Shown here: positions 103 to 31,345 of the stretch, piece after piece
Numbering within the stretch: position 1 is the first letter of the stretch
Layout of the letters: each line of letters begins with the position of its first letter
Sequence record: OM475426
Source of the DNA: Escherichia phage D8
Reading direction: 5' to 3' (one strand)
DNA length: 31,345 bases
Translations under genes and position numbers: made by a program
The notes under the pieces: model-generated
Databases searched by the model: none
What the model was told of the DNA's origin: nothing
Seen by the model: only the letters and a program-made list of their open reading frames with translations

Positions 103-244
103 TGCGCGCTGGCGGTGGTGCTGATTTTATTTTTTCAGCGTCTGAGCGCGTCGTGAAGGCGCTTAGTCTGCCCGTTGAGGCGTTGGTTTGCCTGCGGGCT
201 GTTTTGTGCGGTGGTGAGCGTGTGAGGGCGTGATGACGGGATGT

Positions 245-271: not shown

Positions 272-1306
272 TCAGCCGTTGTCAGTGTCCAGTGAGTAGT
301 TTTTAAAGCGGATGACCTCCTGACCGAGCCAGCCGTTTATCTCGCGGATCCTGTCCTGTAGCGGGATAAGCTCATTGCGGACAAAGACCTTTGCCACTTT
401 CTCAATATCTCCCAGTGACCCGACGTTCTCCGGCTTGCCGCCCATCAACTGAAAGGGGATGCGGTGCGCGTCCAGCAGGTCTGCGGCACTGGCTTTTTTG
501 ATATTAAAAAAATCGTCCTTCGTTGCCACTTCACTGAGCGGGATAATTTTAATTCCGTCGGCTTTCCCCTGCGGGGCATAGAGAAACAGATTTTTAAAGT
601 TGTTGCGGCCTTTCGACTTCACCATGTTTTCGCGAAGCATTTCGATATCGTTGCGATCCTGCACGGCATCGGTAACGTACATGATGTATCCGGCATGAGC
701 GCCATTTTCGTAATACTTGCGGCGGAACAGCGTGGCCGACTCATTCAGCCAGGCAGAGTTAAGGGCGCTGAGATATTCCGGCAGGCCGTACAGCTCCTGA
801 TTAATATCCGGCTCCAGCAGGTGAAACACGGAGCCGGGCGCGAAAGGTGTCGGCTCATGGAAGGACGGCACCCACCAGTAAACATCCTCTTCCACGCCAC
901 GGCGGGTATATTTTGCCGGTGAGGTTTCCAGTCTGATGACCTTACCGGTGGTGCTGTAACGCTTTTCCAGAAACGCATTACCGAACACCAGAAAATCCAG
1001 CACAAAGCGGCTGAAATCCTGCTGGGAAAGCCACGGATGCGGGATAAATGTCGAGGCCAGAATATTGCGTTTGACGTAAATCGGGGAGCTGTGATGCACG
1101 GCAGCACGCAGGCTTTTTGCCAGACCGGTAAAGCTGACCGGTGGCTCATACCATCTGCCGTTACTGATGCACTCGACGTAATCCAGAATGTCACGGCGGT
1201 CGAGTACCGGCACCGGCTCACCAAAGGTGAATGCCTCCATTTTCGGGGCGCTGGCGGTCATTTTTTTTGCCGCAGGTTGCGGTGTTTTCCCTTTTTTCTT
1301 GCTCAT
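272..1306 (-). CDS. Q: Portal protein (P2 gpQ-like), 344 aa
   Basis: ORF length identical to P2 gpQ (344 aa), position next to cos and upstream of the large terminase, Lys-rich N-terminus; 1-nt overlap with the P stop suggests translational coupling. Confidence 0.9.
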   Translation of the reverse strand: MSKKKGKTPQPAAKKMTASAPKMEAFTFGEPVPVLDRRDILDYVECISNGRWYEPPVSFTGLAKSLRAAVHHSSPIYVKRNILASTFIPHPWLSQQDFSRFVLDFLVFGNAFLEKRYSTTGKVIRLETSPAKYTRRGVEEDVYWWVPSFHEPTPFAPGSVFHLLEPDINQELYGLPEYLSALNSAWLNESATLFRRKYYENGAHAGYIMYVTDAVQDRNDIEMLRENMVKSKGRNNFKNLFLYAPQGKADGIKIIPLSEVATKDDFFNIKKASAADLLDAHRIPFQLMGGKPENVGSLGDIEKVAKVFVRNELIPLQDRIREINGWLGQEVIRFKNYSLDTDNG

Positions 1307-11944: not shown

Positions 11945-14704
11945 ATGAGCACGAAATTTAAAACCGTTATCACTACTGCCGGAGCCGCAAAGCTGGCTGC
12001 CGCCACTGTCCCCGGCGGGAAAAAAGTAAACCTGTCTGCAATGGCCGTGGGTGACGGTAATGGCAAATTACCGGTGCCGGATGCCGGTCAGACGAAACTG
12101 GTGCATGAGGTCTGGCGTCACGCTCTGAATAAAGTCAGTGTGGATAATAAGAATAAAAACTATATTGTGGCTGAACTGGTTGTTCCGCCAGAAGTGGGCG
12201 GCTTCTGGATGCGTGAGCTTGGTCTGTATGACGATGCCGGAACACTGATTGCGGTATCCAACATGGCAGAAAGCTATAAGCCAGAACTGGCTGAAGGCTC
12301 CGGACGTGCGCAGACCTGCCGCATGGTTATTATTCTCAGCAACGTGGCGTCCGTTGAGCTGAGTATTGATGCCAGCACAGTGATGGCTACGCAGGATTAC
12401 GTCGATGACAAAATCGCAGAGCATGAGCAGTCCCGCCGCCATCCTGACGCCACGCTGACAGAAAAAGGTTTTACTCAGTTAAGCAGTGCAACAAACAGCA
12501 CCAGTGAAAAGCTGGCGGCAACGCCAAAAGCGGTCAAGGCTGCGAATGACAACGCAAATTCACGTCTGGCGAAAAATCAGAACGGTGCAGATATCCAGGA
12601 TAAATCAGCTTTTCTGGACAATGTTGGCGTTACCAGCCTGACGTTTATGAAAAACAATGGCGAAATGCCGCTTGATGCTGATCTGAATACGTTTGGTCCT
12701 GTTAAGGCTTATTCAGGTATCTGGTCTAAAGCAACATCCACCAACGCAACACTGGAGAAAAATTTCCCGGAAGATAATGCTGTCGGTGTGCTTGAGGTTT
12801 TTGCTGCCGGCAATTTTGCAGGTACGCAACGCTTTACCACGAGAGACGGCAATGTATACATGCGTAAACTCGCCAATAGGTGGAATGGCACTGATGGTCC
12901 GTGGGGCGTATGGCGTCACACTCAATCTGCTACCCGCCCTTTGAGTACGACTATAGACCTGAATACGCTTGGAGCCGCCGAGCATCTTGGTTTATGGCGT
13001 AACAGTAGCTCAGCTATAGCTTCATATGAACGCAATTATCCAGAGGAAGGCGGCTTTGCTCAGGGGATGCTTGAGATCCTCGAAGGCGGAAATTATGGAA
13101 GAACGCAACGTTATACCACTCGCCGTGGAAATATGTATGTCCGCTGTCTTGCGGCAAGCTGGGATGCATCAAATCCGCAGTGGGAACCGTGGTTAAGAGT
13201 CGGTCATCAGTCAGAGAGTCGTTATTACGAAGGTGATTTAAATGTTCTAACCGACCCCGGTATTTACAGTGTTACAGGAAAGGCAACAAACGGTCCGATG
13301 CTGGACACCGTTGGCGCGACACTACTTGGGATACTGGAAGTAATCAGACGTTTTGATGGTGTGTCTGTCTGGCAGCGTTACACAACCACAGGGAAATCAG
13401 AAACCACACAGGGACGCACTTTTGAGCGCGTCTACGCCGGGAGCAAATGGACCGAATGGCGAGAAGTATATAACTCCTTTTCGTTGCCTCTGAATCTGGG
13501 CATCGGTGGCGCAGTGGCAAAACTATCCAGTCTGGACTGGCAGACCTACGATTTTGTGCCGGGCAGTCTGATAACCGTGCGGCTTGATAACATGACCAAC
13601 ATTCCCGACGGTATGGACTGGGGCGTCATTGATGGCAACCTGATAAACATCGCAGTTGGTCCGAGTGATGATTCCGGTACGGGGCGCTCAATGCATGTAT
13701 GGCGCAGCACTGTAAGTAAAGCGAACTACCGCTTTTTTATGGTGCGTATTTCAGGAAATCCGGGAAGCCGCACGATCACGACAAGACGTGTGCCAATTAT
13801 CGACGAAGCTCAGACATGGGGCGCGAAACAGACATTCAGTGCTGGCCTTTCTGGTGAACTGTCCGGCAATGCGGCGACAGCAACAAAGCTGAAAACAGCC
13901 CGTAAAATTAATAACGTTTCGTTTGATGGAACATCAGATATTAACTTGACGCCGAAAAATATTGGTGCATTTGCTTCAGGAAAAACAGGAGACACCGTTG
14001 CGAATGATAAAGCCGTTGGGTGGAACTGGAGTAGCGGAGCCTATAACGCAACTACTGGTGGGGCATCAACGTTAATTCTTCATTTTAATATCGGTGAAGG
14101 AAGTTGTCCCGCCGCCCAGTTCCGCGTTAATTATAAGAACGGCGGTATTTTTTATCGTTCTGCTCGTGACGGTTACGGATTCGAGGCTGACTGGTCTGAG
14201 TTTTATACCACAACGCGAAAACCTACAGCGGGAGATGTCGGTGCACTGCCGTTATCTGGTGGTCAATTGAATGGTGCTCTGGGTATAGGAACATCCAGTG
14301 CTCTTGGCGGTAATTCGATTGTTTTGGGTGATAATGACACGGGCTTTAAACAAAATGGTGATGGTAATCTGGATGTTTATGCTAATAGCGTCCATATTAT
14401 GCGCTTTGTCTCGGGAAGTATTCAAAGTAATAAAACCATAAATATTACGGGGCGTGTTAATCCCTCGGATTACGGTAACTTTGATTCCCGCTATGTCCGG
14501 GATATCCGGCTTGGTGGTGCTGCCACATACAAACCTGCGAACAATGGCATGACATGGACACATCAGGCACCGTCCGGGTGTGTATATTCCGGCATTATTG
14601 TTCAGGATACCGGCTCAAACTCTGCCGATAACATTGGTGGTGTATATTACAGGCCGGTTCAGAAATACATTAACGGGACATGGTATAACGTGGCGCAGGT
14701 ATAA
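11945..14704 (+). CDS. H: Tail fibre protein (P2 gpH-like N-terminus with expanded mosaic C-terminal receptor-binding region), 919 aa
   Basis: N-terminal ~200 aa resemble P2 gpH as I recall it (MS.KF.TVITTAGAAKLAAA...); the ORF is 919 aa vs 669 in P2; the distal half has lower GC, three tandem ~70-aa modules and a C-terminal domain resembling those of P1/Mu S and lambda Stf. Confidence 0.85.
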   Translation: MSTKFKTVITTAGAAKLAAATVPGGKKVNLSAMAVGDGNGKLPVPDAGQTKLVHEVWRHALNKVSVDNKNKNYIVAELVVPPEVGGFWMRELGLYDDAGTLIAVSNMAESYKPELAEGSGRAQTCRMVIILSNVASVELSIDASTVMATQDYVDDKIAEHEQSRRHPDATLTEKGFTQLSSATNSTSEKLAATPKAVKAANDNANSRLAKNQNGADIQDKSAFLDNVGVTSLTFMKNNGEMPLDADLNTFGPVKAYSGIWSKATSTNATLEKNFPEDNAVGVLEVFAAGNFAGTQRFTTRDGNVYMRKLANRWNGTDGPWGVWRHTQSATRPLSTTIDLNTLGAAEHLGLWRNSSSAIASYERNYPEEGGFAQGMLEILEGGNYGRTQRYTTRRGNMYVRCLAASWDASNPQWEPWLRVGHQSESRYYEGDLNVLTDPGIYSVTGKATNGPMLDTVGATLLGILEVIRRFDGVSVWQRYTTTGKSETTQGRTFERVYAGSKWTEWREVYNSFSLPLNLGIGGAVAKLSSLDWQTYDFVPGSLITVRLDNMTNIPDGMDWGVIDGNLINIAVGPSDDSGTGRSMHVWRSTVSKANYRFFMVRISGNPGSRTITTRRVPIIDEAQTWGAKQTFSAGLSGELSGNAATATKLKTARKINNVSFDGTSDINLTPKNIGAFASGKTGDTVANDKAVGWNWSSGAYNATTGGASTLILHFNIGEGSCPAAQFRVNYKNGGIFYRSARDGYGFEADWSEFYTTTRKPTAGDVGALPLSGGQLNGALGIGTSSALGGNSIVLGDNDTGFKQNGDGNLDVYANSVHIMRFVSGSIQSNKTINITGRVNPSDYGNFDSRYVRDIRLGGAATYKPANNGMTWTHQAPSGCVYSGIIVQDTGSNSADNIGGVYYRPVQKYINGTWYNVAQV

Positions 14705-14707
14705 TTT

Positions 14708-15235
14708 ATGCAGCATTTAAAAAATATTACGGCGGGTAATCCAAAAACGGTTGAACAATATCAATTGACAAAGGGTTTTGATGTTGTCTGGTTTTTTTCA
14801 GAAGATGGTAAGAACTGGTACGAAGAACAAAAGTATTTTGCTGATGACACGATAAAAATAGCGTACGACAAAGATAATATTATCCGCTATGTGGAAAAGG
14901 ATGTGACAGCTATCAGACCGGATGGATTAAGTGTTGTTGAAGTGGCGGATATTACTGCTAACCGACGGGCGGACATTTCAGGGGGCTGGATGTTTAAGGA
15001 CGGCAAAGTGATTAAACGCATTTATACGGCAGAGGAATTGCTGCAGCAGGCAGAAAACCGGAAAGCCAGACTTCTTGCAGATGCTGAATCCGTGATTTTG
15101 CCGCTGGAGCGCGCGGTCAGACTGAACATGGCAACAGATGAGGAGCGTAGCCGACTGGATGCATGGGAGCGTTACAGCGTTCTGGTCAGTCGTGTGGATC
15201 CTGCAAATCCTGAATGGCCGGAAATGCCGCAATAA
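14708..15235 (+). CDS. G: Tail fibre assembly chaperone (P2 gpG-like), 175 aa
   Basis: 175 aa as P2 gpG; immediately downstream of H. Confidence 0.8.
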
Positions 15236-15456: not shown

Positions 15457-16050
15457 ATGTTTACTAAGCGACGATTAAAAAATATTAACTGGGAGGCAAG
15501 TTCAGTGATTCTTGCCATGGTTCTCTTTGTTGGAAATATATTTTATACAAATCATCGTGATGATATAAGCATGGAGGCTGAGAGGGACAGTATCAGAACA
15601 ATGTTTGCATATGAAATCGCTAATAACCATCGCGCTCTCACTTTTCTTGATAAAACGAGATATATTGGCTTTGACGAAAATTCGGAGCATTTTGTTGGCG
15701 AGCCTTTTGCCATTAATGTCAAATCATTAGGGGGGCCTCGCTTACAGATTGCATTAAACCAGACTGATAAAGTGTTTAAATCCTACTTCAGCGAATTAAG
15801 TAAGCTTGATAAAGAGGATGTTACTCTTCTTATGGACTATTACCATGAGCAAAGCATCCTGCTGGAGCGTGTAAAATCTACGTTACAGAAGATGAAAAGT
15901 GGTAATGATATTAAAGTTGATATTGATGGTTACTTATTAGAAGAACACTTCATGAATGAGCTTAATCTTTCTAATATTTTGCTTAAACGCTATAGCCATT
16001 TGTTGTCACAACACGCCAAAGAACATAAAACAAAAGATTTACATAATTGA
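15457..16050 (+). CDS. Cargo (moron) ORF of unknown function, 197 aa, N-terminal transmembrane anchor; at the P2 Z/fun hotspot position
   Basis: AT-rich ORF in a low-GC island between G and FI; RBS aaggtg about 8 nt before ATG; N-terminal hydrophobic helix (SSVILAMVLFVGNIFY) followed by a charged soluble region; no family recognised. Confidence 0.6.
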   Translation: MFTKRRLKNINWEASSVILAMVLFVGNIFYTNHRDDISMEAERDSIRTMFAYEIANNHRALTFLDKTRYIGFDENSEHFVGEPFAINVKSLGGPRLQIALNQTDKVFKSYFSELSKLDKEDVTLLMDYYHEQSILLERVKSTLQKMKSGNDIKVDIDGYLLEEHFMNELNLSNILLKRYSHLLSQHAKEHKTKDLHN

Positions 16051-21519: not shown

Positions 21520-22682
21520 TGCTGGATGCACTGACATTTGATGCAGGCAGTACGCTGACGCCGGATTACATGCTGATACTCGACAGCAGGGATATTACCG
21601 GCAATATCAGCGACCGTCTGATGAGCATGACCCTGACGGATAACTGGGGCTTTGAGGCTGACCAGCTTGATATTGAACTGAACGATGCCGACGGGCAGGT
21701 CGGGCTGCCGGTTCGTGGCGCTGTCCTGACGGTGTATATCGGCTGGAAAGGTTTTGCCCTGGTATGCAAAGGGAAATTTACCGTTGATGAGGTTGAACAC
21801 CGGGGCGCGCCGGATGTGGTCACCATCCGCGCCCGGAGTGCAGATTTTCGCGGGACGCTCAATTCCCGCCGGGAAGGCTCCTGGCATGACACCACGCTCG
21901 GTGCGATTGTTGAGGCAATAGCCTACCGTAACAGGCTGGAAGCCAGTGTCGCGCCGTCACTGGCCGGAATTAAAATCCCGCACATCGACCAGTCGCAGGA
22001 GTCTGATGCGAAATTCCTGACCCGTCTTGCAGAACGCAACGGCGGAGAGGTGTCGGTAAAAATGGGAAAACTGTTGTTTCTCAAAGCGGGGCAGGGGGTG
22101 ACGGCCAGCGGTAAAACAATCCCGCAGATTACCATCACCCGCAGTGACGGCGACCGCCATCATTTTGCGATTGCTGACCGTGGAGCCTATACCGGCGTAA
22201 CAGCAAAGTGGTTACACACCAAAGACCCGAAACCGCAAAAGCAGAAGGTAAAACTGAAACGCAAAAAGAAAGAAAAACACCTGCGCGCACTGGAGCACCC
22301 GAAAGCGAAACCGGTCAGGCAGAAGAAAGCGCCAAAAGTACCGGAAGCGCGCGAAGGTGAATACATGGCCGGTGAGGCTGACAACGTTTTTGCCCTGACC
22401 ACGGTATATGCCACGAAAGCGCAGGCCATGCGCGCCGCTCAGGCGAAGTGGGACAAACTGCAACGGGGTGTGGCGGAGTTCTCCATCAGCCTGGCTACCG
22501 GTCGGGCAGATATTTACACGGAAACGCCGGTCAAAGTGTCAGGCTTTAAGCGCGTCATAGACGAGCAGGACTGGACCATCACTAAGGTGACACATTTTCT
22601 GAATAATAGCGGCTTCACGACGTCCTTAGAGCTTGAGGTCAGGCTTTCTGATGTGGAGTACGAAACAGAAGATGATGAATGA
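21519..22682 (+). CDS. D: Tail protein / late gene D (P2 gpD-like), 387 aa
   Basis: 387 aa as P2 gpD; ATGCTGGATG overlap with the U stop. Confidence 0.85.
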   Translation: MLDALTFDAGSTLTPDYMLILDSRDITGNISDRLMSMTLTDNWGFEADQLDIELNDADGQVGLPVRGAVLTVYIGWKGFALVCKGKFTVDEVEHRGAPDVVTIRARSADFRGTLNSRREGSWHDTTLGAIVEAIAYRNRLEASVAPSLAGIKIPHIDQSQESDAKFLTRLAERNGGEVSVKMGKLLFLKAGQGVTASGKTIPQITITRSDGDRHHFAIADRGAYTGVTAKWLHTKDPKPQKQKVKLKRKKKEKHLRALEHPKAKPVRQKKAPKVPEAREGEYMAGEADNVFALTTVYATKAQAMRAAQAKWDKLQRGVAEFSISLATGRADIYTETPVKVSGFKRVIDEQDWTITKVTHFLNNSGFTTSLELEVRLSDVEYETEDDE

Positions 22683-22763
22683 TGTTTTTATTTTATCTGT
22701 TTGTTTTATAAGGATAAATTAACTAAAATGGCACCATCAACAAAACCGGAAGAGGTGCTCGCG

Positions 22764-22982
22764 ATGTTTCATTGTCCTTTATGCCAGCATGCCGCACATG
22801 CGCGTACAAGCCGCTATATCACTGACACGACAAAAGAGCGTTATCACCAGTGTCAGAACGTGAATTGCAGTGCCACGTTCATCACTTATGAGTCGGTACA
22901 GCGATACATCGTGAAGCCGGGAGAAGTCCACGCCGTAAGGCCGCACCCGTTGCCATCAGGGCAGCAAATTATGTGGATGTAA
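22764..22982 (+). CDS. ogr: Late transcription activator Ogr (zinc-finger), 72 aa
   Basis: Start at MFHCPLCQHAAHARTSRYI... gives 72 aa with Cys-x2-Cys ... Cys-x4-Cys zinc-binding pattern, matching P2 Ogr as I recall it. Confidence 0.85.
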   Translation: MFHCPLCQHAAHARTSRYITDTTKERYHQCQNVNCSATFITYESVQRYIVKPGEVHAVRPHPLPSGQQIMWM

Positions 22983-22993
22983 TTACAAACAGA

Positions 22994-23018
22994 AAGCCCC
23001 TCAGTCGAGGGGCTTTTT
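22994..23018 (+). terminator. Rho-independent terminator after ogr
   Basis: Hairpin aagcccctc/agtcg/aggggctt followed by tttttt. Confidence 0.7.
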
Positions 23019-23197
23019 TGTCGATGTGGTCAATGTGTGGACGTAACCAGAAATAAATCCTTTTATTTCACGTGATTAGATATCAAAAAATGTCACCAAT
23101 AACTGACTTGGTAGCCCCCGCCGTAGCGGTATTTTCTGTTGTATTACAATTAGTTAAATTACTCATATCGCTTCAATTGGCTCTAGTTAACTCTGGT
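23019..23197. other. attP: Probable attP region (phage attachment site) between ogr and int
   Basis: Position equivalent to P2 attP; AT-rich; contains an inverted repeat gaaataaa/tttatttc (23050-23069). I did not recognise the P2 attP core, so the core cannot be pinpointed. Confidence 0.35.
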
Positions 23198-24193
23198 TTA
23201 TGGACGCATTATGGACATTCCTGACACCGGGTTAAGAGTCACAGCATCTTGTAAGAAATCCGGTGCAAAGTGTGCGTAGGTCATAGTTTGCTGAATGTTA
23301 GAATGACCCAGGATGCGCTGCAATGTGATTATGTTACCTCCATTCATTATAAAATGTGTGGCAAATGTATGCCTCAAAACATGTACTGCTTGTCCGTCAG
23401 GTAAATCGGGTTTTACTTCCCTGAGAGCGTTACGCACTTTGTAGTAACTGGCATTAAAAAGCCTGCCTGAATTTTTGGTCTTGATCCGTTTAATCAGGTC
23501 CTGCGAAACGGGAATTGTCCTGCGTTTTCCGTTTTTAGTTTTCATAAACGTAACCATCTGGTTAATGATGTGTTCAGCTTTTAAATTAGACACTTCACTC
23601 CAGCGTCCACCAGTAGAAAGGCAGACCAGAGTTGCATTTAATTCATCACCATCAAGCATGGATAACAGCCGCGTAATCTCTTCACTGGACAAAAAAGCCA
23701 TTTCCGTAACAGCTTCACGTAACCGTTTAATCTCACGGAACGGGTTGTGGGAGTGGTATTCACCGGCGTCAATTAACTTGGTGAACATCCCGCTCATTAT
23801 TGCCAGATGTCGATTTACGCTGGCTGGTTTTAGACCATCGTTCATCATTACAACGCGATAATCAGTTATCGTTTTCTTTGTTAGCTGGTCAGCTCTGGAC
23901 ACTCCCATTTCTGCAAATTTGGCGATTATTGTCGTTAAACGCCCCCGTTCAATATCTCCACGCTCATGTGATTTTCCGTGATATATCCACCATCTACCTA
24001 ACAACTCTGTAAGAGTTCGGCGGTCGGCTGGTTTCTCCAACCACTCTTTGTTGTGGTAGTTAACCAATACATGACGTTCGAATGCCTGAGCTTCACCTTT
24101 AGTTTTAAATTTCCGCCTGATACGTTTTCCATCTGCACCCTGCGGTCTGACGTCCACTTCATAACGACCATCATCGAGCTTTTTAATAGACAT
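23198..24193 (-). CDS. int: Tyrosine integrase (P2-family), 331 aa
   Basis: Tyrosine recombinase hallmarks in the C-terminal half (HVLRHTFATH ... MTYAHF); RBS ggaggg before ATG; location next to attP and the immunity region. Confidence 0.85.
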   Translation of the reverse strand: MSIKKLDDGRYEVDVRPQGADGKRIRRKFKTKGEAQAFERHVLVNYHNKEWLEKPADRRTLTELLGRWWIYHGKSHERGDIERGRLTTIIAKFAEMGVSRADQLTKKTITDYRVVMMNDGLKPASVNRHLAIMSGMFTKLIDAGEYHSHNPFREIKRLREAVTEMAFLSSEEITRLLSMLDGDELNATLVCLSTGGRWSEVSNLKAEHIINQMVTFMKTKNGKRRTIPVSQDLIKRIKTKNSGRLFNASYYKVRNALREVKPDLPDGQAVHVLRHTFATHFIMNGGNIITLQRILGHSNIQQTMTYAHFAPDFLQDAVTLNPVSGMSIMRP

Positions 24194-24286
24194 AAAGCCC
24201 TCCGATGACGCTGTTTACTTCTACTACTTGAAAATTAATGCAATTTTCTTTCGTACATTTACTACACACATATGCTGAATAAATCG

Positions 24287-24586
24287 TCAGCCAGTCTTCT
24301 GGTCTGAGTGGTGCAAGGTTGTTGAGTCTTGCCCAATGTGTGCGAGAGCCGGGGCTATTTGTCCAGCTGCTGGATCTGTTTCATCAAACATGAACCAGTC
24401 ACGATACTTGCGAAAGCGTGGATGCTTAAACAGCTTCATACCTGCTTCCATAGGCATTTTTGATTTTCCTGATTCATATCCATGATATGTGTAGTAATTA
24501 ATTCCAATTAATTCAGCAAGTTCCTTAGTTTTAAGGCGTTCGGATTCACGGATGAGCTTTAGTTTCTCACTTTGTTCACTTGACAT
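24287..24586 (-). CDS. C: Immunity repressor (P2 C-like), 99 aa
   Basis: Start at MSSEQSEKLKLIRES... gives 99 aa as P2 C; helix-turn-helix-like segment (TKELAELIGINYYTYHGYESG); divergent from cox. Confidence 0.75.
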   Translation of the reverse strand: MSSEQSEKLKLIRESERLKTKELAELIGINYYTYHGYESGKSKMPMEAGMKLFKHPRFRKYRDWFMFDETDPAAGQIAPALAHIGQDSTTLHHSDQKTG

Positions 24587-24679
24587 AATTTTGCTAATCT
24601 CCAATTATATTGCTACTTGGCAATTTGTGATTCACTCAAAAAGGCTCTAGATGGCTCCAGTTGGTGAATCGCAAATCTT
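24587..24679. promoter_or_regulatory. Immunity switch region: divergent Pc/Pe promoters with candidate operator repeats
   Basis: 93-bp intergenic region between divergent C and cox; partial inverted repeat tgtgattcac (24626-24635) and tggtgaatcgc (24662-24672) flanking GGCTC-tagat-GGCTC (24643-24657). Confidence 0.45.
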
Positions 24680-25051
24680 ATGGAGGATAGCAAAGTGACG
24701 ACAAATGTAGAAATTTCTTGTCCAACTAGCGATGAGGCAAGTTTCGAAAATGAAGCCAAACGTAAAAGCATTCAGATTTCAGAGCGCCCATCTGATTTGC
24801 TGTCGAAAGAAGGTTTTGCTCTTTACATCGGTAAGACACCACGCGCGGTGGCTGAAATGGCTAAAGCAGGAAAGCTGCCAGCCTTCTACATGACAGACCC
24901 ATTAAAACCAAGAGGGAAAGCTGAATTATGGATTAATCGCCGTGAGTGGGACAAGTACGCAGCCCAACTGGTTGATGAAGCTCCGACAGAATGGCATGAC
25001 TGGAAAAATCGCATTAGTTACAGCAAATCAAGACATGGCCGTGCGGCTTAA
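24680..25051 (+). CDS. cox: Cox-like excisionase/early repressor (DNA-binding), up to 123 aa
   Basis: First rightward gene opposite C; central segment FALYIGKTPRAVAEMAKAGKLPAFYMTDP resembles a Cox/AlpA-type HTH; start codon uncertain (ATG 24680 or later GTG). Confidence 0.6.
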   Translation: MEDSKVTTNVEISCPTSDEASFENEAKRKSIQISERPSDLLSKEGFALYIGKTPRAVAEMAKAGKLPAFYMTDPLKPRGKAELWINRREWDKYAAQLVDEAPTEWHDWKNRISYSKSRHGRAA

Positions 25052-25232
25052 GGTGGAAAGGATGAACGAGCCTCGTTGTATTGCTCAGTTATTGCGTAAC
25101 GAAAGCCCCAGGGCGATTGACTTCACCATCACCCACGGTAAGGGGCGTAAGGGAATCATTATCCGCACCAAAAAACAGAGTCCGTTAAAAAAGGCTCTGA
25201 CCTTTCTGAAAAGCCGGAGGGTATGGAAATGA
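24996..25232 (+). CDS. Small early ORF (P2 orf78-like), 78 aa
   Basis: ORF 24942-25232 with internal start MTGKIALVTANQD... giving 78 aa; overlaps the cox 3' end out of frame; positional equivalence to P2 orf78. Confidence 0.5.
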   Translation: MTGKIALVTANQDMAVRLKVERMNEPRCIAQLLRNESPRAIDFTITHGKGRKGIIIRTKKQSPLKKALTFLKSRRVWK

Positions 25233-25729
25233 CAGTGATGACGCTCAATCTCGTTGAAAAACAGCCAGCAGCTATGCGCCGGATAATTGGCAAGCATCTT
25301 GCCGTCCCTCGCTGGCAGGATACATGTGATTATTATAATCAGATGATGGAGCGCGAACGGCTAACGGTTTGCTTTCATGCACAGTTAAAACAGCGTCACG
25401 CAACGATGCGTTTTGAAGAAATGAACGACGTCGAACGTGAACGACTGGTATGTGCAATTGATGAATTGCGTGGGGCATTCTCAAAACGCCGTCAGGTCGG
25501 TGCAAGTGAGTATGCATATATTAGCTTTTTAACTGTCAGTCAGCGCCGTACTTTATTTATGCATGCCGGATTGACTGAAAAAGAATTCAACCAGCCATAC
25601 TGGCGAATTAATGAAGAGTCATGTTACTGGCGTGATGCTTTATTCCGTGCATTACGTGAATTATTCAGTCTGTTTGAGTATGCACCGACAATTCTGACGT
25701 CGGTAAAACCAGAGCAATATCTGCATTAA
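25223..25729 (+). CDS. B: Replication protein B (P2 gpB-like), 168 aa
   Basis: Length close to P2 B (166 aa as I recall) and position between cox and the A gene cluster. Confidence 0.75.
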   Translation: MEMTVMTLNLVEKQPAAMRRIIGKHLAVPRWQDTCDYYNQMMERERLTVCFHAQLKQRHATMRFEEMNDVERERLVCAIDELRGAFSKRRQVGASEYAYISFLTVSQRRTLFMHAGLTEKEFNQPYWRINEESCYWRDALFRALRELFSLFEYAPTILTSVKPEQYLH

Positions 25730-25792
25730 GTAATTAACCAGAGTTTTTAACGCACTTAATTGTGCGGGGCTTCTTTTTGCCTGGAGAAAGTC

Positions 25793-26017
25793 ATGCATAC
25801 AGTTTCTGAAAATGAGTGCGGTAAATACGCATTACTGCTGCAACAGGCCAGAACCGAAGCACAGGCCGATGCAGCGACGCGCTTTTCTTCTCATCTTGAC
25901 GCCATGATTCGCCACATCACAAAGGCGGAGTTATCCCGCGTGGAGATAGTCGAGCTGCTCAGTCAGGAGTCGGAAAAATTTCACAACATCGGATTGTCTC
26001 GCGGGGAGGTGCTTTGA
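25793..26017 (+). CDS. Small early ORF (P2 orf80-83 cluster, first member), about 74 aa
   Basis: RBS ggaga before ATG at 25793 ([12 protein letters not shown]...); positional equivalence to P2 small ORFs between B and A. Confidence 0.5.
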
Positions 26018-26316
26018 TGTCCTGTTCTCGTTCAGTTGTTTTACTGAACAATGCCTTAAAAATCGCCGTTATGAAAAATGGCGATTTGTCTCTTATTCAA
26101 CTTGGTCTTGATAAAGAAAAACGCGAAATAACTGAATCTGTTATCGCGATTTATCAGAGTGAATTAAACCTCCTGTCTGATGTGGTCAATTTACTTGTTA
26201 AACGCGCTGTATTTCACAAGCAAATTTCCTCAGTGGATGAACTGACAAAATTAACGACAGAACTTGCCAGTTATTGCGCTGATGTATCCAGGAAACTTAA
26301 CGATAAAAGGAGCTGA
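26014..26316 (+). CDS. Small early ORF, 100 aa, unknown function
   Basis: ATGA overlap with preceding ORF; consistent codon usage; part of early operon. Confidence 0.5.
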
Positions 26317-26318
26317 TA

Positions 26319-26543
26319 ATGCCGGACAACGTAGATTTTATTCAGGAACAACAGGCTGAATTACTGGAGCGCCAGATTAACGCGGCAAGGGTAAAACATT
26401 GCGGTGTTTCTGCGCTGGTTTGCGAAGAGTGTGACGCACCAATACCTGCTGCCCGTCGTGCGGCTTATCCGTCAGCCACGCGTTGTGTTTCCTGTCAGTC
26501 AGTCTTTGAAGCAAAAAACAAACATTACCGGAGAACGGCATGA
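26319..26543 (+). CDS. TraR/DksA-family C4 zinc-finger protein, 74 aa
   Basis: Cys-x2-Cys (CEEC) and Cys-x2-Cys (CVSC) pairs about 20 residues apart at the C-terminus with preceding helical region, typical of phage TraR-like proteins. Confidence 0.65.
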   Translation: MPDNVDFIQEQQAELLERQINAARVKHCGVSALVCEECDAPIPAARRAAYPSATRCVSCQSVFEAKNKHYRRTA

Positions 26544-26815: not shown

Positions 26816-29084
26816 AGCCTCCGGGCGTTTTGTCCCTCCGTCAGCATTTGCCGCAGGCACCGGTAAGACATTTACCGGTGCTTATGCATGGAACGCGCCA
26901 CGCGAGGCCGTCGGGCGCGAAAGACCCCTTACACGTGACGAGATGCGTCAGGTGCAAGGTGTTTTATCCACGATTAACCGCCTGCCTTACTTTTTGCGTT
27001 CGCTGTTTACTTCACGCTATGACTACATCCGGCGCAATAAAAGCCCGGTGCACGGGTTTTATTTCCTCACATCCACTTTTCAGCGTCGTTTATGGCCGCG
27101 CATTGAGCGTGTGAATCAGCGCCATGAAATGAACACCGACGCGTCGATGCTGTTTCTGGCTGAGCGTGACCACTATGCGCGCCTGCCGGGAATGAATGAC
27201 AAGGAGCTGAAAAAGTTTGCCGCCCGTATCTCATCGCAGCTTTTCATGATGTATGAGGAACTCAGCGATGCCTGGGTGGATGCGCATGGCGAGAAAGAAT
27301 CGCTGTTTACGGATGAGGCGCAGGCTCACCTCTATGGTCATGTTGCTGGCGCTGCACGTGCTTTCAATATTTCCCCGCTTTACTGGAAAAAATACCGTAA
27401 AGGACAGATGACCACGAGGCAGGCATATTCTGCCATTGCCCGTCTGTTTAACGATGAGTGGTGGACTCATCAGCTTAAAGGCCAGCGTATGCGCTGGCAT
27501 GAAGCGTTACTGATAGCTGTCGGGGAGGTCAATAAAGACCGTTCTCCTTATGCCAGTAAACACGCCATTCGTGATGTGCGTGCGCGCCGCCAGGCAAATC
27601 TGGAATTTCTTAAATCGTGTGACCTTGAAAACAGGGAAACCGGCGAGCGCATCGACCTTATCAGTAAGGTGATGGGCAGTATTTCTAATCCTGAAGTTCG
27701 CCGGATGGAGCTGATGAACACCATTGCCGGTATTGAGCGTTACGCCGCCGCAGAGGGTGATGTGGGGATGTTTATCACGCTGACCGCGCCGTCAAAGTAT
27801 CACCCGACACGTCAGGTCAGAAAAGGCGAAAGTAAAACCGTTCAGCTAAATCACGGCTGGAACGATGAGGCATTTAATCCAAAGGATGCGCAGCGTTATC
27901 TCTGCCGCATCTGGAGCCTGATGCGCACGGCATTCAAGGATAATGATTTACAGGTCTACGGTTTGCGTGTCGTCGAGCCACACCACGACGGAACGCCGCA
28001 CTGGCATATGATGCTTTTTTGTAATCCACGCCAGCGTAACCAGATTATCGAAATCATGCGTCGCTACGCGCTCAAAGAGGATGGAGACGAAAGAGGAGCT
28101 GCGCGAAACCGTTTTCAGGCAAAGCACCTTAACCGGGGCGGTGCTGCGGGATATATCGCGAAATACATTTCAAAAAATATCGACGGCTATGCACTGGATG
28201 GTCAGCTCGATAACGATACCGGTAAGCCGCTTAAAGATACTGCCGCGGCTGTTACCGCATGGGCGTCAACGTGGCGCATCCCGCAATTTAAAACGGTTGG
28301 CCTGCCGACAATGGGGGCTTACCGTGAACTACGCAAATTGCCTCGCGGCGTCAGCATTGCTGATGAGTTTGACGAGCGCGTCGAGGCTGCACGCGCCGCC
28401 GCAGACAGTGGTGATTTTGCGTTGTATATCAGCGCGCAGGGTGGGGCAAATGTCCCGCGCGATTGTCAGACTGTCAGGGTCGCCCGTAGCCCGTCGGATG
28501 ACGTTAACGAGTATGAGGAAGAAGTCGAGAGAGTGGTCGGCATTTACGCGCCGCATCTCGGCGCGCGTCATATTCATATCACCAGAACGACGGACTGGCG
28601 CATTGTGCCGAAAGTTCCGGTCGTTGAGCCCTTGACTTTAAAAAGCGGCATCGCCGCGCCTCGGAGTCCTGTCAATAACTGTGGAAAGCTCACCGGTGGT
28701 GATACTTCGTTACCGGCTCCCACGCCTTCTGAGCACGCCGCAGCAGTGCTTAATCTGGTTGATGACGGTGTTATCGAATGGAATGACCCGGAGGTCGTGA
28801 GGGCGCTCAGAAGCGCATTAAAACACGGCCTGAGAAGACCAAACCGTCAGCAAAGAAACGGAAGCCCGTTAAAACCGCATGAAATAGCGCCATCGGCCAG
28901 ACTGACCCGGTCGGAACGAATGCAAATTACCCGTATCCGCGTTGACCTTGCTCAGAACGGTATCAGGCCGCAGCGATGGGAGCTTGAGGCGCTGGCGCGA
29001 GGGGCTACCATAACATATGGCAGGAAGACGTTTATATATCCTACAATCGATGTGTGTTTGGGATATTCTGCTTTTACAAAATGA
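26805..29084 (+). CDS. A: Replication initiation protein A (rolling-circle nickase, P2 gpA-like), about 759 aa
   Basis: Start at MAVKASGRF...; length about 760 aa as P2 gpA (761 aa); HUH-like motif (PHWHMMLF) and Tyr-containing motif (AGYIAKYISKN) consistent with a rolling-circle initiator. Confidence 0.85.
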   Translation: MAVKASGRFVPPSAFAAGTGKTFTGAYAWNAPREAVGRERPLTRDEMRQVQGVLSTINRLPYFLRSLFTSRYDYIRRNKSPVHGFYFLTSTFQRRLWPRIERVNQRHEMNTDASMLFLAERDHYARLPGMNDKELKKFAARISSQLFMMYEELSDAWVDAHGEKESLFTDEAQAHLYGHVAGAARAFNISPLYWKKYRKGQMTTRQAYSAIARLFNDEWWTHQLKGQRMRWHEALLIAVGEVNKDRSPYASKHAIRDVRARRQANLEFLKSCDLENRETGERIDLISKVMGSISNPEVRRMELMNTIAGIERYAAAEGDVGMFITLTAPSKYHPTRQVRKGESKTVQLNHGWNDEAFNPKDAQRYLCRIWSLMRTAFKDNDLQVYGLRVVEPHHDGTPHWHMMLFCNPRQRNQIIEIMRRYALKEDGDERGAARNRFQAKHLNRGGAAGYIAKYISKNIDGYALDGQLDNDTGKPLKDTAAAVTAWASTWRIPQFKTVGLPTMGAYRELRKLPRGVSIADEFDERVEAARAAADSGDFALYISAQGGANVPRDCQTVRVARSPSDDVNEYEEEVERVVGIYAPHLGARHIHITRTTDWRIVPKVPVVEPLTLKSGIAAPRSPVNNCGKLTGGDTSLPAPTPSEHAAAVLNLVDDGVIEWNDPEVVRALRSALKHGLRRPNRQQRNGSPLKPHEIAPSARLTRSERMQITRIRVDLAQNGIRPQRWELEALARGATITYGRKTFIYPTIDVCLGYSAFTK

Positions 29085-29199
29085 ATGGTGTCGGAACATA
29101 ATATTTTCAGGTGTTCAAAGAGTTTGTTCTGATGTTCTTGCTATTTTTGTTTCTTTTGATGAAAATGGCGTCTTTAAAATTGGTTAAAAGGTGTGTTGT

Positions 29200-29688
29200 A
29201 TGGATGGTTTATGGGAAAAAATATCGTCTTATAATATATTTAACAATCTCTTTCCCGGTGCTTTGTTTATTTATTTGTTTGAGCGGGCAACCAATGTGAT
29301 ATTATCCACAGATGATGTTGTTAAGAATGTGGTACTTTACTATTTTACGGGGATAATTATCGGAAGGATTGGGTCTATTGTTTTTGAGCCTGTGTTGAAA
29401 TTTTTGGGGCTGGTAAAATTTGTTCCATATGAGGAATATATCTCAGCATGTAGAAAGGATAATAAAATAGAGCTTCTTCAAGAAACTGCAAATATGTATA
29501 GGACGTTATTCTCTATGTCCTTGGTTTTTTTGTTTTCTTTGTTTTTTGTTTCGTTTGTAGTTGGTGGTGATTACATGGCGTCGAAATGGATTTCATTGTT
29601 TTTGATTTTTGTTTTTATTGTGTCGTACGTTAAGCAAATTAAGTTTATTACATTAAGAGTGAGTAAGGCTAATAATAAGCTGCCCTAA
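29200..29688 (+). CDS. Cargo ORF: small polytopic membrane protein (about 4 TM helices), about 162 aa, unknown function
   Basis: AT-rich; RBS aaggtg before ATG at 29200; hydrophobic segments FPGALFIYLF, VVLYYFTGIIIGRIGSIVF, LFSMSLVFLFSLFFVSFVVGG, WISLFLIFVFIVSYV. Confidence 0.55.
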   Translation: MDGLWEKISSYNIFNNLFPGALFIYLFERATNVILSTDDVVKNVVLYYFTGIIIGRIGSIVFEPVLKFLGLVKFVPYEEYISACRKDNKIELLQETANMYRTLFSMSLVFLFSLFFVSFVVGGDYMASKWISLFLIFVFIVSYVKQIKFITLRVSKANNKLP

Positions 29689-29696
29689 GGCAGCTT
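29677..29696. terminator. Bidirectional hairpin terminator between the convergent cargo genes
   Basis: Perfect 8-bp stem aagctgcc/ctaa/ggcagctt spanning the stop codon of the plus-strand ORF and lying 7 nt from the minus-strand ORF stop; T/A-rich flank on the minus-strand side. Confidence 0.55.
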
Positions 29697-29702
29697 AACG
29701 AA

Positions 29703-30788
29703 TTATTCTTCAGTCTTATAACTCCTTGCGTATGAGCGTGGGGTGACTGCAGTCCAGCCATCTCTGGCGGGGGCATTACTAGAATGGCGTTTATTGGTGC
29801 CTTCTGTGGCGACTACTTTGGCTCCACGCCTTGTAAAAGCATTAATGACCGCTTGATGAGGGTGTTTATCGGAATCCGGTGCGCATGATATAAATGCACA
29901 AACACCACTTCTTCCTCCTTCGCTTACAATATTTCCAACGAGCTTATTTAGCACCGCTGGACCGATGTTTCTCCTGCTTCCATGGTGGGGCACTTGAATA
30001 AATGATAATGAGTTATTATTTATATGATCAGCAGCCATATCTAATGCAGTTATTCCTGCATCACCTGTAAATACTAGTGTTTTATTGTCAATTTCAATTT
30101 TTAATATAACGCTTGAATTGTTTTGTGCAGTAGTTGTGTCCTTGTCATCAATTCCCTCATCAGAGAACCAATCAGCAATATACTCGACTTGTTCTTTGGC
30201 TTTCTCAAAAAAGTAGTTATATGCATCTGTACCACTGGTTGCAGTTGTTTCTGCTTTTTCAGGCATTCTTGCAAAATCGGGGATTAATGTTTCATAGTAT
30301 GCTTGTGTTGGTCCAATAACAACCAGTTTAGAATTGTCCCAAGTCCTGCCTTGAAAAGGCTCCTTAATTTCTATTCCTTTTTTTTTCGCTGATTTGACGG
30401 CATCATAGGCTTTTTGTAGATTATCTTGTATACGTCTGGCAATACTTGCATCTGTTATCCTTCCATCAGCAAATTCCTGCGCGAGATTTTCATTATGCTC
30501 CCAAGGCTGGTGAATCCAGAACTCTTTGACTTCCGCATTCTCAATCACATGCTCAAGGCCGCCAGCATGGTCGCTATCTGGATGCGTGGATATGAGTAAG
30601 TCAATAGTATTTGTATGATAGTATTTCTGTAAATGTTCAATTATTTGTGGACCAGTGCTTGCGTACCCCGCATCAATTACGACAACTTTTTGCTCTGCTC
30701 TTGTTCCGTGGAGGTTGCCCCATCTTATGCAGATAGCATCTCCACTTTTTTTTTCTCCAACTGCTAAGAAATCAACTTCGTAACCCAT
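29703..30788 (-). CDS. Cargo ORF: metallo-beta-lactamase-fold hydrolase (possible nuclease), 361 aa
   Basis: All five MBL-fold motifs in order: VVVIDAG (Asp), STHPDSDHAGG (HxDxDH variant of HxHxDH), FWIHQ (His), VFTGDAG (Asp), VPHHGS (His); AT-rich; RBS-like aaggg before ATG; located where P2 carries tin/old. Confidence 0.75.
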   Translation of the reverse strand: MGYEVDFLAVGEKKSGDAICIRWGNLHGTRAEQKVVVIDAGYASTGPQIIEHLQKYYHTNTIDLLISTHPDSDHAGGLEHVIENAEVKEFWIHQPWEHNENLAQEFADGRITDASIARRIQDNLQKAYDAVKSAKKKGIEIKEPFQGRTWDNSKLVVIGPTQAYYETLIPDFARMPEKAETTATSGTDAYNYFFEKAKEQVEYIADWFSDEGIDDKDTTTAQNNSSVILKIEIDNKTLVFTGDAGITALDMAADHINNNSLSFIQVPHHGSRRNIGPAVLNKLVGNIVSEGGRSGVCAFISCAPDSDKHPHQAVINAFTRRGAKVVATEGTNKRHSSNAPARDGWTAVTPRSYARSYKTEE

Positions 30789-31128
30789 TCTTGTGCCCTT
30801 CTGTAGTTTTCAACTTTATGTAAGTGTTGTACGCCAAAGTAGTGCAGGACTTGATTAGGCAATCAAAGACCTTTAAAACAATATCAGGATGCATAAATAT
30901 TCGTGTCTAGATCAATAGATTAGATCGAGTTTTTGATAATCAATTTGCGCCTGCTTCTTGATAACCGTTGTTAGTGTAAATTTTGCGCAATGTAATTGGC
31001 AAATCACTGCGATATGAGTTGCGTGCCAGCCAGCTTTAATATGCAGACTTTGCTATATCTTTCTACACGATTTTTATTTTCAGATGTGCAAGCATTAGGC
31101 GCATTGTTTTGCATGCGTTGGAGCTGCT

Positions 31129-31220
31129 AGTTTAGATCGTGCTCCGTCAGAATAGGCGCGACACCATGGTGGTCATGCACCTGCATTAAAACCGACCCAT
31201 GAAGCGGGCGGGCGAGGCGG
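31129..31220. repeat. Second copy of the 92-bp terminal direct repeat (identical to window bases 1-92), includes the first half of the cos-like sequence
   Basis: Exact match read from sequence; divergence begins at 31221. Confidence 0.9.
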
Positions 31221-31345
31221 CATTAGATATGGCTGCTGATCATATAAATAATAACTCATTATCATTTATTCAAGTGCCCCACCATGGAAGCAGGAGAAAC
31301 ATCGGTCCAGCGGTGCTAAATAAGCTCGTTGGAAATATTGTAAGC
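31221..31345. repeat. 125-bp inverted duplication: reverse complement of 29922-30046 (internal to the MBL-fold gene)
   Basis: Reverse complement of gcttacaatatttccaacgagc...cagccatatctaatg (29922-30046) equals 31221-31345 exactly as far as I can read. Confidence 0.85.

Follow-up and report, generated by a model that had tools for sequence, protein, structure and literature searches.

Gene H of Escherichia phage D8 (sequence record OM475426) encodes a tail fibre protein of 919 aa, compared with 669 aa for H of P2 (NC_001895; NP_046775), lengths that an earlier note on this DNA had given and that the ORF and the P2 record bear out. The question raised by this locus is what the additional residues are and whether they imply a receptor specificity different from that of P2. 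The window in which the gene was analysed is the whole stretch of 31,345 nucleotides. ORF order, matches to Tail_P2_I and Caudo_TAP, and the annotation of the identical phage 12W place H in the late operon order V-W-J-I-H-G, an order that P2 shares. H and G together are 100% identical to those of phages 12W and P24E6b, the D8 ORF is 99.7% identical to that of PhiR44_1 (recorded on E. coli C), and comparison with deposited phage genomes reveals an intact H ORF. D8 H is the gpH of a peduovirus (P2-like coliphage). None of the NCBIfam models matched H; the name that NCBI gives to its close relatives is 'pyocin knob domain-containing protein'. The chaperone gene G starts 4 nt past H, and its product is 74% identical to P2 G. 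Between G and FI there is one ORF of 197 aa, for which no PADLOC or Pfam match was found, leaving a defence role unsupported.

Table 1. Features of the D8 H-G region, with positions in the window
Feature	Residues of H	Positions	Strand	Basis
Gene H, tail fibre protein, 919 aa		11945..14704	+	ORF
N-terminal tail-collar / baseplate-attachment domain	1-151	11945..12397	+	Pfam PF12571, E 3.1e-57
Shaft repeats, common to Mu S constant part	167-233	12443..12643	+	PF03406 at aa 170-211, E 1.1e-20
Knob 1, pyocin-type knob domain	236-329	12650..12931	+	Independent HMM, 3.8e-18
Knob 2	330-424	12932..13216	+	Independent HMM, 1.1e-17; z = 29.7 vs Knob 1
Knob 3, most diverged copy	430-510	13232..13474	+	Independent HMM, 1.2e-16
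X domain	513-625	13481..13819	+	Knob-like predicted fold
Linker with fibre repeat, ...ATKLKTARKINNVSFDGTSDINLT...	626-670	13820..13954	+	Read from sequence
Mu/P1 S'-type block	671-768	13955..14248	+	8ju3 residues 320-417, i-Evalue 3.2e-48
gp37-like glycine-rich neck, also in P2 H	769-840	14249..14464	+	61% to P2 H over first 70 residues
Variable tip block, 'window-type' allele	841-900	14465..14644	+	Allele comparison, nine phages
Conserved C-terminal end, ...RPVQKYINGTWYNVAQV, plus stop	901-919	14645..14704	+	84% to P2 and L-413C H
Gene G, tail fibre assembly chaperone, 175 aa		14708..15235	+	Caudo_TAP (PF02413), E 3.1e-34

Parts of tail fibres have been exchanged horizontally among P2, Mu, P1 and T-even phages, and D8 H is likewise a mosaic, as the earlier note had proposed. 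Its first 207 residues, a P2-like stretch that ends at nt 12565, are 84% identical to P2 H, confirming the conserved N-terminus claimed for it; nothing in P2 H corresponds to aa 208-769. A full-length alignment of the C-terminus with P2 H, which the earlier note had named as evidence against its reading, was found in part, since the final 150 aa can be aligned with the C-terminal end of P2 H (39% identity), and a 68-residue stretch of the P2 H tip region is absent from D8 H. D8 H thus lacks the full-length collinearity with P2 H that characterizes the P2-type gpH class. A distal domain of the P1/Mu type is not what sets D8 apart from P2, as a domain of this class also forms the end of P2 H. 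The shaft repeats match Mu S chains 5yvq and 8ju3 at residues 110-176.

The region without a counterpart in P2 H contains three modules that the earlier note had described as a tandem series sharing one pattern. We searched H with a hidden Markov model of 245 distant domains, none of which reaches 40% identity with the three modules, and observed matches at exactly three places, aa 236-329, 330-424 and 430-510. Each of the three intervals first proposed falls inside one of these domains, and the motifs first noticed correspond to columns that are conserved and collinear in all three (D-L-N, G-hydrophobic-Y/W, G-x-L-E-V, Q-R-Y-T-T and W-x-x-W); the proposed module length of about 70 aa has to be corrected, the HMM-defined unit being about 85-95 aa. 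Internal repetition was not apparent in a self-BLASTP of whole H, which returned the identity match alone, and was evident in module-by-module alignment against shuffled sequences: the Smith-Waterman score of module 1 against module 2 is 180, compared with a shuffle mean of 26.8 (sd 5.2), corresponding to z = 29.7. Module 3 is marginal in pairwise comparison (z about 2.3) and in a shallow profile-profile comparison (E about 1e-3 over 32 columns), and its membership was settled by the 245-domain HMM. A word-indexed search with the module profile yielded nothing beyond E. coli fragments. No tandem or direct DNA repeats were found across the modules, which rules out a recent DNA duplication; the duplication is therefore old.

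The modules are real tandem homologous domains of the R-type-pyocin knob type. A profile of 51 distant relatives matches 6cl6_A at residues 134-209, within Knob2, at 4.5e-18, 6ct8 at 7.1e-16 and 6cl5 at 5.1e-15. This profile and the 245-domain profile are related and come from the same pool, such that the link to pyocin knobs is a transitive one; a profile of the D8 knob family alone matches 6cl5 marginally (E 0.049). In an AlphaFold2 (AF2) monomer model, in which the three domains are modelled confidently and Knob 1 has a pLDDT of about 78-89, the fold of Knob 1 matches R1 and R2 pyocin fibres and other knob-bearing receptor-binding proteins. The predicted fold is an antiparallel sheet of 5-6 strands with variable connecting loops, repeated in tandem domains, which agrees with the pyocin-knob fold. 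Pyocin knobs are homotrimeric, their sheets packed around the three-fold axis and their loops facing outward.

Following the three knobs is a recurrent domain of about 100 aa, which we call X. It is absent from family libraries and has no detectable sequence relation to knobs, and an assignment as a fourth knob by sequence was rejected, the support lying at the level of the predicted fold. Judged from that predicted fold, X may be a fourth, sequence-divergent knob-like domain. The K-K-K-X arrangement of three knobs and X recurs in many fibre proteins; it is present in H of phage L-413C, absent from P2 H, and found duplicated, for example in P0050, as K-K-K-X-K-K-K-X.

The distal part of D8 H consists of blocks common to otherwise unrelated phages, as the earlier note had proposed, with matches to Mu, P1, T-even, phiTE and rV5-like fibres. 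Its description of a P1/Mu/lambda-type distal domain holds for Mu and P1, as tblastn over about aa 675-768 gives 84% identity to Mu S', 78% to P1 Sv' and 82% to D6; it does not hold for lambda, which gave no match among the matches listed. The S'-type block also matches Pfam gp37_C (E 4e-5). T-even gp37 shares about 43% identity with H over about aa 775-880, and the neck matches 6f45 and, below the cut-off of that model, Pfam gp37_trimer. The tip block resembles residues 483-552 of the short tail fibre of phiTE (9cuy_c; 2.5e-18) and 426-503 of Mu S; rV5-like and PBES 02 fibres match it at 44-60%. The phiTE paper does not describe the C-terminal domain of the short fibre. The linker that precedes these blocks contains a motif that serves as the junction point in three recombinant relatives (P0018, P0030 and P0003). 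In Mu and P1, alternative fibre ends lie on a segment between inverted repeats that a Gin/Cin invertase flips, and this arrangement was rejected for D8: no significant inverted repeats were found flanking H-G, no gix-like site was found using a consensus of that site, and no second, inverted fibre end was present among the ORFs of the window.

Complete E. coli genomes contain roughly 163 H alleles of nearly full length. We compared nine H alleles from phages by the mean and minimum identity of each segment. Variation is confined to the knobs (means of 0.69-0.83) and the tip (mean 0.64), the flanking parts being 0.98-1.00 identical; the N-terminal domain has a mean identity of 0.99 and the linker of 1.00. 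Knob 1 has a mean of 0.77 and a minimum of 0.45, Knob 2 a mean of 0.83, and Knob 3 a mean of 0.69 and a minimum of 0.40. The tip exists as two discrete alleles that are about 0.36 identical to each other, and which of them a phage carries goes together with the N-terminal half of G: this half is 0.97 identical to that of phages with the same tip and 0.66-0.69 identical to that of phages carrying the other one. Among alleles, the C-terminal half of G is 0.80-1.00 identical. Tfa chaperones have been reported to bind the fibre through their non-conserved N-terminal domain (PMC9608196). Knobs and tips are combined independently of each other: the knobs of YpM_50 are at least 0.96 identical to those of D8, and its tip is the other allele. 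P2SIDE7 and P22H1, for example, have the same tip as 12W. Within the knobs, variation is weakly enriched in predicted loops (61% versus 49% of positions; Fisher p = 0.047), which gives weak support to a restriction to surface loops. This bias is as compatible with replacement of whole domains as with selection on a binding surface.

These results bear on the receptor as follows. The additional length of D8 H does not in itself imply a receptor different from that of P2; the tip makes such a difference a plausible candidate reading at the level of sequence. Being 31-38% identical to the tips of P2 and L-413C, the block at aa 841-900 would be a stronger pointer to a receptor difference than length is. 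As a whole, the observations are probably best explained by a mosaic gpH of the L-413C type in which both tip and knobs bind and are exchanged as independent units. In such a fibre, gpH would act as a homotrimer, the downstream chaperone G would fold the variable tip, and the tip, matched to its own G N-terminal domain, would make the main contact with the LPS core. Higher on the fibre, by analogy with what has been proposed for R-type pyocin fibres, the knob array may supply second, lateral surfaces that bind saccharides or orient the fibre. Host range would evolve by recombination, the knob cassette and the tip-plus-chaperone unit being exchanged separately. [quoted passage not shown] Tentatively, host range may even be carried by two independently recombining units, one being K-K-K-X, binding saccharides laterally, and the other the tip together with the G N-terminal domain. 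If this is true, K-K-K-X would itself be a mobile unit that many unrelated fibres have taken up, with duplication in some cases.

The alternative that survives best, which we nevertheless consider doubtful, is that specificity lies in the tip alone and that the knob cassette serves as a structural spacer and nucleates folding, determining how long and how stiff the fibre is, with neutral variation brought in by recombination. Both L-413C and P2 vir1 need the GlcNAc at the end of the LPS outer core in Y. pestis (PMC3182234); because knobless P2 and three-knob L-413C share this critical residue, knobs are not required for the choice of the GlcNAc receptor. Likewise, for P88 and pro147, both of them P2-like, host range has been mapped to a hypervariable block of 31 aa near the C-terminus (PMC5285337), a folding role for knob domains has also been suggested (Buth et al.), and the bias of knob variation toward loops is weak. 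However, neutral drift alone would hardly confine variation so sharply to the knobs while their neighbours stay 98-100% identical. Moreover, Knob 2 diversity tracks the killing spectrum in R pyocins (Buth et al.), Knob 2 similarity tracks the host spectrum in Litunavirus (PMC12625404), and the K1F endosialidase has a knob-like domain that binds sialic acid (Buth et al.). The converse arrangement, with the knob array as the primary receptor-binding site and the tip as a generic, chaperone-dependent cap for trimerisation and folding, appears quite improbable. Although Knobs 1 and 3 rank among the least conserved segments of H and Buth et al. rate Knob 2 above the C-terminal domain for the R-pyocin spectrum, there are two discrete tip alleles, both paired with a matching N-terminal domain of G, C-terminal residues set the host range of P88 and pro147, and P2 H needs no knobs to bind its receptor. 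Finally, that the modules reflect chance or compositional similarity, or that the ORF is a decayed prophage gene, is improbable in the extreme, as we found no support for it beyond a third module that is marginal in pairwise comparison only, and chance is ruled out by the shuffled alignment of modules 1 and 2, three HMM matches of 1e-16 to 1e-18 and the confident three-domain model, and decay by an intact ORF found unchanged in 12W and P24E6b.

H has identical counterparts among deposited and annotated phage genes and as such has little discovery value. The domain map of knobs, X, S' block, tip and chaperone half supplies well-defined joints at which P2-type phages or retargeted pyocins can be engineered.

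Besides P2 H, three known systems resemble D8 H. Mu S/S' and P1 S/S' (5YVQ, 8JU3) share with it the shaft repeats, the S' block, a related tip and a Caudo_TAP chaperone (U/U'); no array of pyocin-type knobs is detectable in the sequence of Mu S. R-type pyocin fibres (P. aeruginosa PA0620; PDB 6CL5, 6CL6) resemble D8 H in their tandem knobs of ~84 aa, in motif order and in the P2-type contractile-tail context. They carry two knobs, compared with three plus X in D8 H, and, beyond a shaft that contains iron, terminate in a lectin-like 'foot', whereas D8 H ends in S'/gp37-type domains. The closest likeness is to gpH of Yersinia phage L-413C (NP_839867, 913 aa), which has the K-K-K-X architecture followed by a G chaperone and is 100% identical to D8 H over aa 1-210 and 96-100% identical over aa 631-840. 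Its knobs have diverged from those of D8 (0.45, 0.71 and 0.44 identity), as have its X domain (0.72) and the N-terminal half of its G (0.68). At the C-terminus, the neck and the extreme end are conserved, and the D8 tip is a different allele, 0.37 identical to the tip of L-413C, which is P2-like, and 0.31 identical to that of P2. According to the account of Garcia et al. 2008 given in PMC7460101, L-413C gpH is a hybrid of four regions whose first 207 aa and last 137 aa are P2-like, the latter at 59%, and a fusion protein of L-413C gpH binds Y. pestis cells (PMC7460101). The architecture of D8 H is this published mosaic type of L-413C gpH.

The window holds the genome of a peduovirus, whose tail fibre gene H encodes a protein of 919 aa, against 669 aa for canonical P2 gpH (NC_001895), as the earlier note had said. 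Gene order around it is V-W-J-I-H-G, with a Tail_P2_I protein before H and the tail fibre assembly chaperone gene G after it. The H and G stretch (11945-15235) is 100% identical to those of Escherichia phage 12W (OM475434) and Peduovirus P24E6b and to a prophage copy in several E. coli chromosomes, and 99.7% identical to that of PhiR44_1. The RefSeq record NC_070906.1 (locus L004; P2SIDE7), labelled 'Peduovirus P2', carries a 919-aa H of the L-413C type and not the canonical 669-aa protein, so 'P2' in record names is unsafe as a proxy for the classical P2 fibre.

BLASTP comparison of H with P2 H gave 84% identity over aa 1-207, in keeping with the P2-like N-terminus described earlier, no P2 H match for aa 208-769, and 39% identity between aa 770-919 and P2 aa 472-669, with 68 residues found only in P2. 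The P2-like N-terminal domain is followed by shaft repeats and then by three tandem modules. Alignment of module 1 with module 2 scores 180, compared with 26.8 ± 5.2 for shuffles (z = 29.7). Module 3 is marginal both pairwise (z about 2.3) and in a shallow profile-profile comparison (E about 1e-3), and it retains every conserved motif column, in unchanged order (DLN, G-hydrophobic-Y/W, GxLEV, QRYTT and WxxW). A module profile was searched against 1.84 billion cluster representatives, yielding 895 matches at E ≤ 1e-3, and 245 distant domains from those matches, each <40% identical to the three modules, were used to build an HMM for scanning H. This HMM matched exactly three places. The intervals proposed earlier for the three modules fall inside these domains, whose length is about 85-95 aa and not the ~70 aa given earlier. 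No DNA-level repeat of the three modules was found in the window sequence, indicating that the triplication is ancient.

Features of H and G. Identity is the mean pairwise value among nine alleles.
Feature	H residues	Window position	Identity	Details
H		11945-14704 (+)		ORF, 919 aa
N-terminal domain			0.99	
Shaft repeats	167-233		0.92	common to Mu S
Knob 1 (module 1)	236-329	12650-12931	0.77	245-domain HMM, E 3.8e-18
Knob 2 (module 2)	330-424	12932-13216	0.83	245-domain HMM, E 1.1e-17
Knob 3 (module 3)	430-510	13232-13474	0.69	245-domain HMM, E 1.2e-16
X domain	513-625	13481-13819	0.91	motif DWQ(T/Q)xDF ... TNxP ... GxxGSRT(F/I)xxR(Q/R)
Fibre repeat			1.00	
S' block	671-768		0.99	84% Mu S', 78% P1 Sv', 82% D6
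Neck, glycine-rich	769-840		0.98	like T-even gp37, about 43%
Variable tip	841-900		0.64	resembles phiTE short fibre, Mu S, rV5-like fibres
G		14708-15235		Caudo_TAP chaperone, directly after H

The modules are pyocin-type knobs. Close relatives of H are named 'pyocin knob domain-containing protein' by NCBI, and a profile built from 51 distant members of the family matched residues 134-209 of the R2 pyocin fibre 6cl6_A, inside Knob2, with an E of 4.5e-18, as well as 6ct8, 6cl5, the phage P68 fibre, the F2-pyocin side fibre and the phi812 receptor-binding protein. The profile of the window-type module family alone reached an E of 0.049 against 6cl5. Buth et al. (PMC6116203) list the same protein set as having a common knob fold and place pyocin Knob1 at residues 357-439 and Knob2 at 445-528. 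An AlphaFold2 model of aa 226-625 has three separate domains of ~6 strands each (pLDDT 75-89, with dips at linkers). Judged by profile matches, knobs often stand in tandem. The 150 best representatives include 18 proteins with a single knob, 54 with two, 51 with three, 19 with four, 5 with five and 1 with six, and the copies are spaced at a median of 96 aa. Some fibre proteins in the 895-match table have up to seven knob-profile matches each.

The X domain represents a recurrent family, ~100 aa in length, that lacks a Pfam model and matches no solved structure by sequence; the fold of X is predicted to be knob-like. X domains accompany knobs in many fibre proteins, sometimes two per protein. 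In some, such as P0050 (1300 aa), the whole cassette of three knobs and X (K-K-K-X) occurs twice in tandem. Three other related fibre proteins (P0018, P0030 and P0035) have the same knobs followed by distal ends that differ widely; the join is in every case at a '...ATKL(K/Q)TAR.I..V.FDG...' repeat, which may be a preferred recombination junction.

The S' block confirms the expected kinship of the distal part with Mu/P1-type fibres, and is 40-55% identical to Felixounavirus-type fibres. P2 itself also ends in a distal domain of this general class, although it has no counterpart of the S' block: the neck is 61% identical to that of P2 H, and conservation extends to the final 19 residues (84% identity to P2).

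We aligned nine alleles (window, L-413C, P2SIDE7, P22H1, PhiR44_2, YpM_50, P24B2, 569R9 and phage 899). The tip block takes two forms among these phages, with an identity of about 0.36 between them. The N-terminal half of G tracks the tip (identity 0.97 where the tip is the same and 0.66-0.69 where it is the other form) and its C-terminal half is 0.80-1.00 identical across alleles, which fits the modular chaperone model (PMC9608196), where binding to the fibre is the task of a variable N-terminal domain. In YpM_50, knobs that match those of the window at 0.96 identity or more go with the other tip; P2SIDE7 has the window's tip and a Knob 3 that is 0.75 identical. Knobs and tip assort independently, with sharp breaks in identity that are the hallmark of recombination.

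To the architecture, homologies, allele pattern and tip-chaperone co-variation established here we add a proposed mechanism, in which the fibre would be a trimer, the tip would be the main point of contact with the LPS core, and the knob array may form a lateral second site for binding or orientation, an idea put forward for R pyocins (PMC6116203). Indirect support comes from Litunavirus, where host spectrum is tracked by Knob 2 similarity (PMC12625404), and from P88 and pro147, where a 31-aa C-terminal block determines host range (PMC5285337). The alternative that specificity resides in the tip alone keeps substantial weight, since L-413C and P2 vir1 both require the terminal GlcNAc in the LPS outer core of Y. 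pestis (PMC3182234) and variable knob positions are only weakly enriched in predicted loops (61% versus 49%; p = 0.047). Given the shared GlcNAc requirement, a new receptor cannot be predicted from the knob cassette alone. The receptor difference from P2 predicted in the earlier note would have its basis in the tip allele rather than in the added length of H.

A 197-aa ORF (15457-16050, +) separates G from the sheath gene FI; it lies in a region of about 36% GC, at a position occupied by fun(Z) in P2 and by a different hypothetical gene in L-413C. It matches phrog_3829 (unknown function), had no match in Pfam, NCBIfam or PADLOC, and has the look of a cargo ('moron') gene, the spot being known to vary. 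Two more low-GC stretches (about 22500-26500 and 29000-31345; GC 0.34-0.48 versus about 0.56 elsewhere) are probably other accessory or regulatory phage regions.

The observation in the earlier note is confirmed, and its interpretation is supported in part. The fibre is a real recombinational mosaic of an already known kind, and H is an allele of the L-413C gpH type. Garcia et al. 2008, as cited in PMC7460101, described L-413C gpH as a four-region hybrid whose N-terminal 207 aa are ≥91% P2-like, compared with 59% for the C-terminal 137 aa. K-K-K-X is the architecture of both L-413C gpH (913 aa) and the window H, whereas P2 H has neither K nor X domains.
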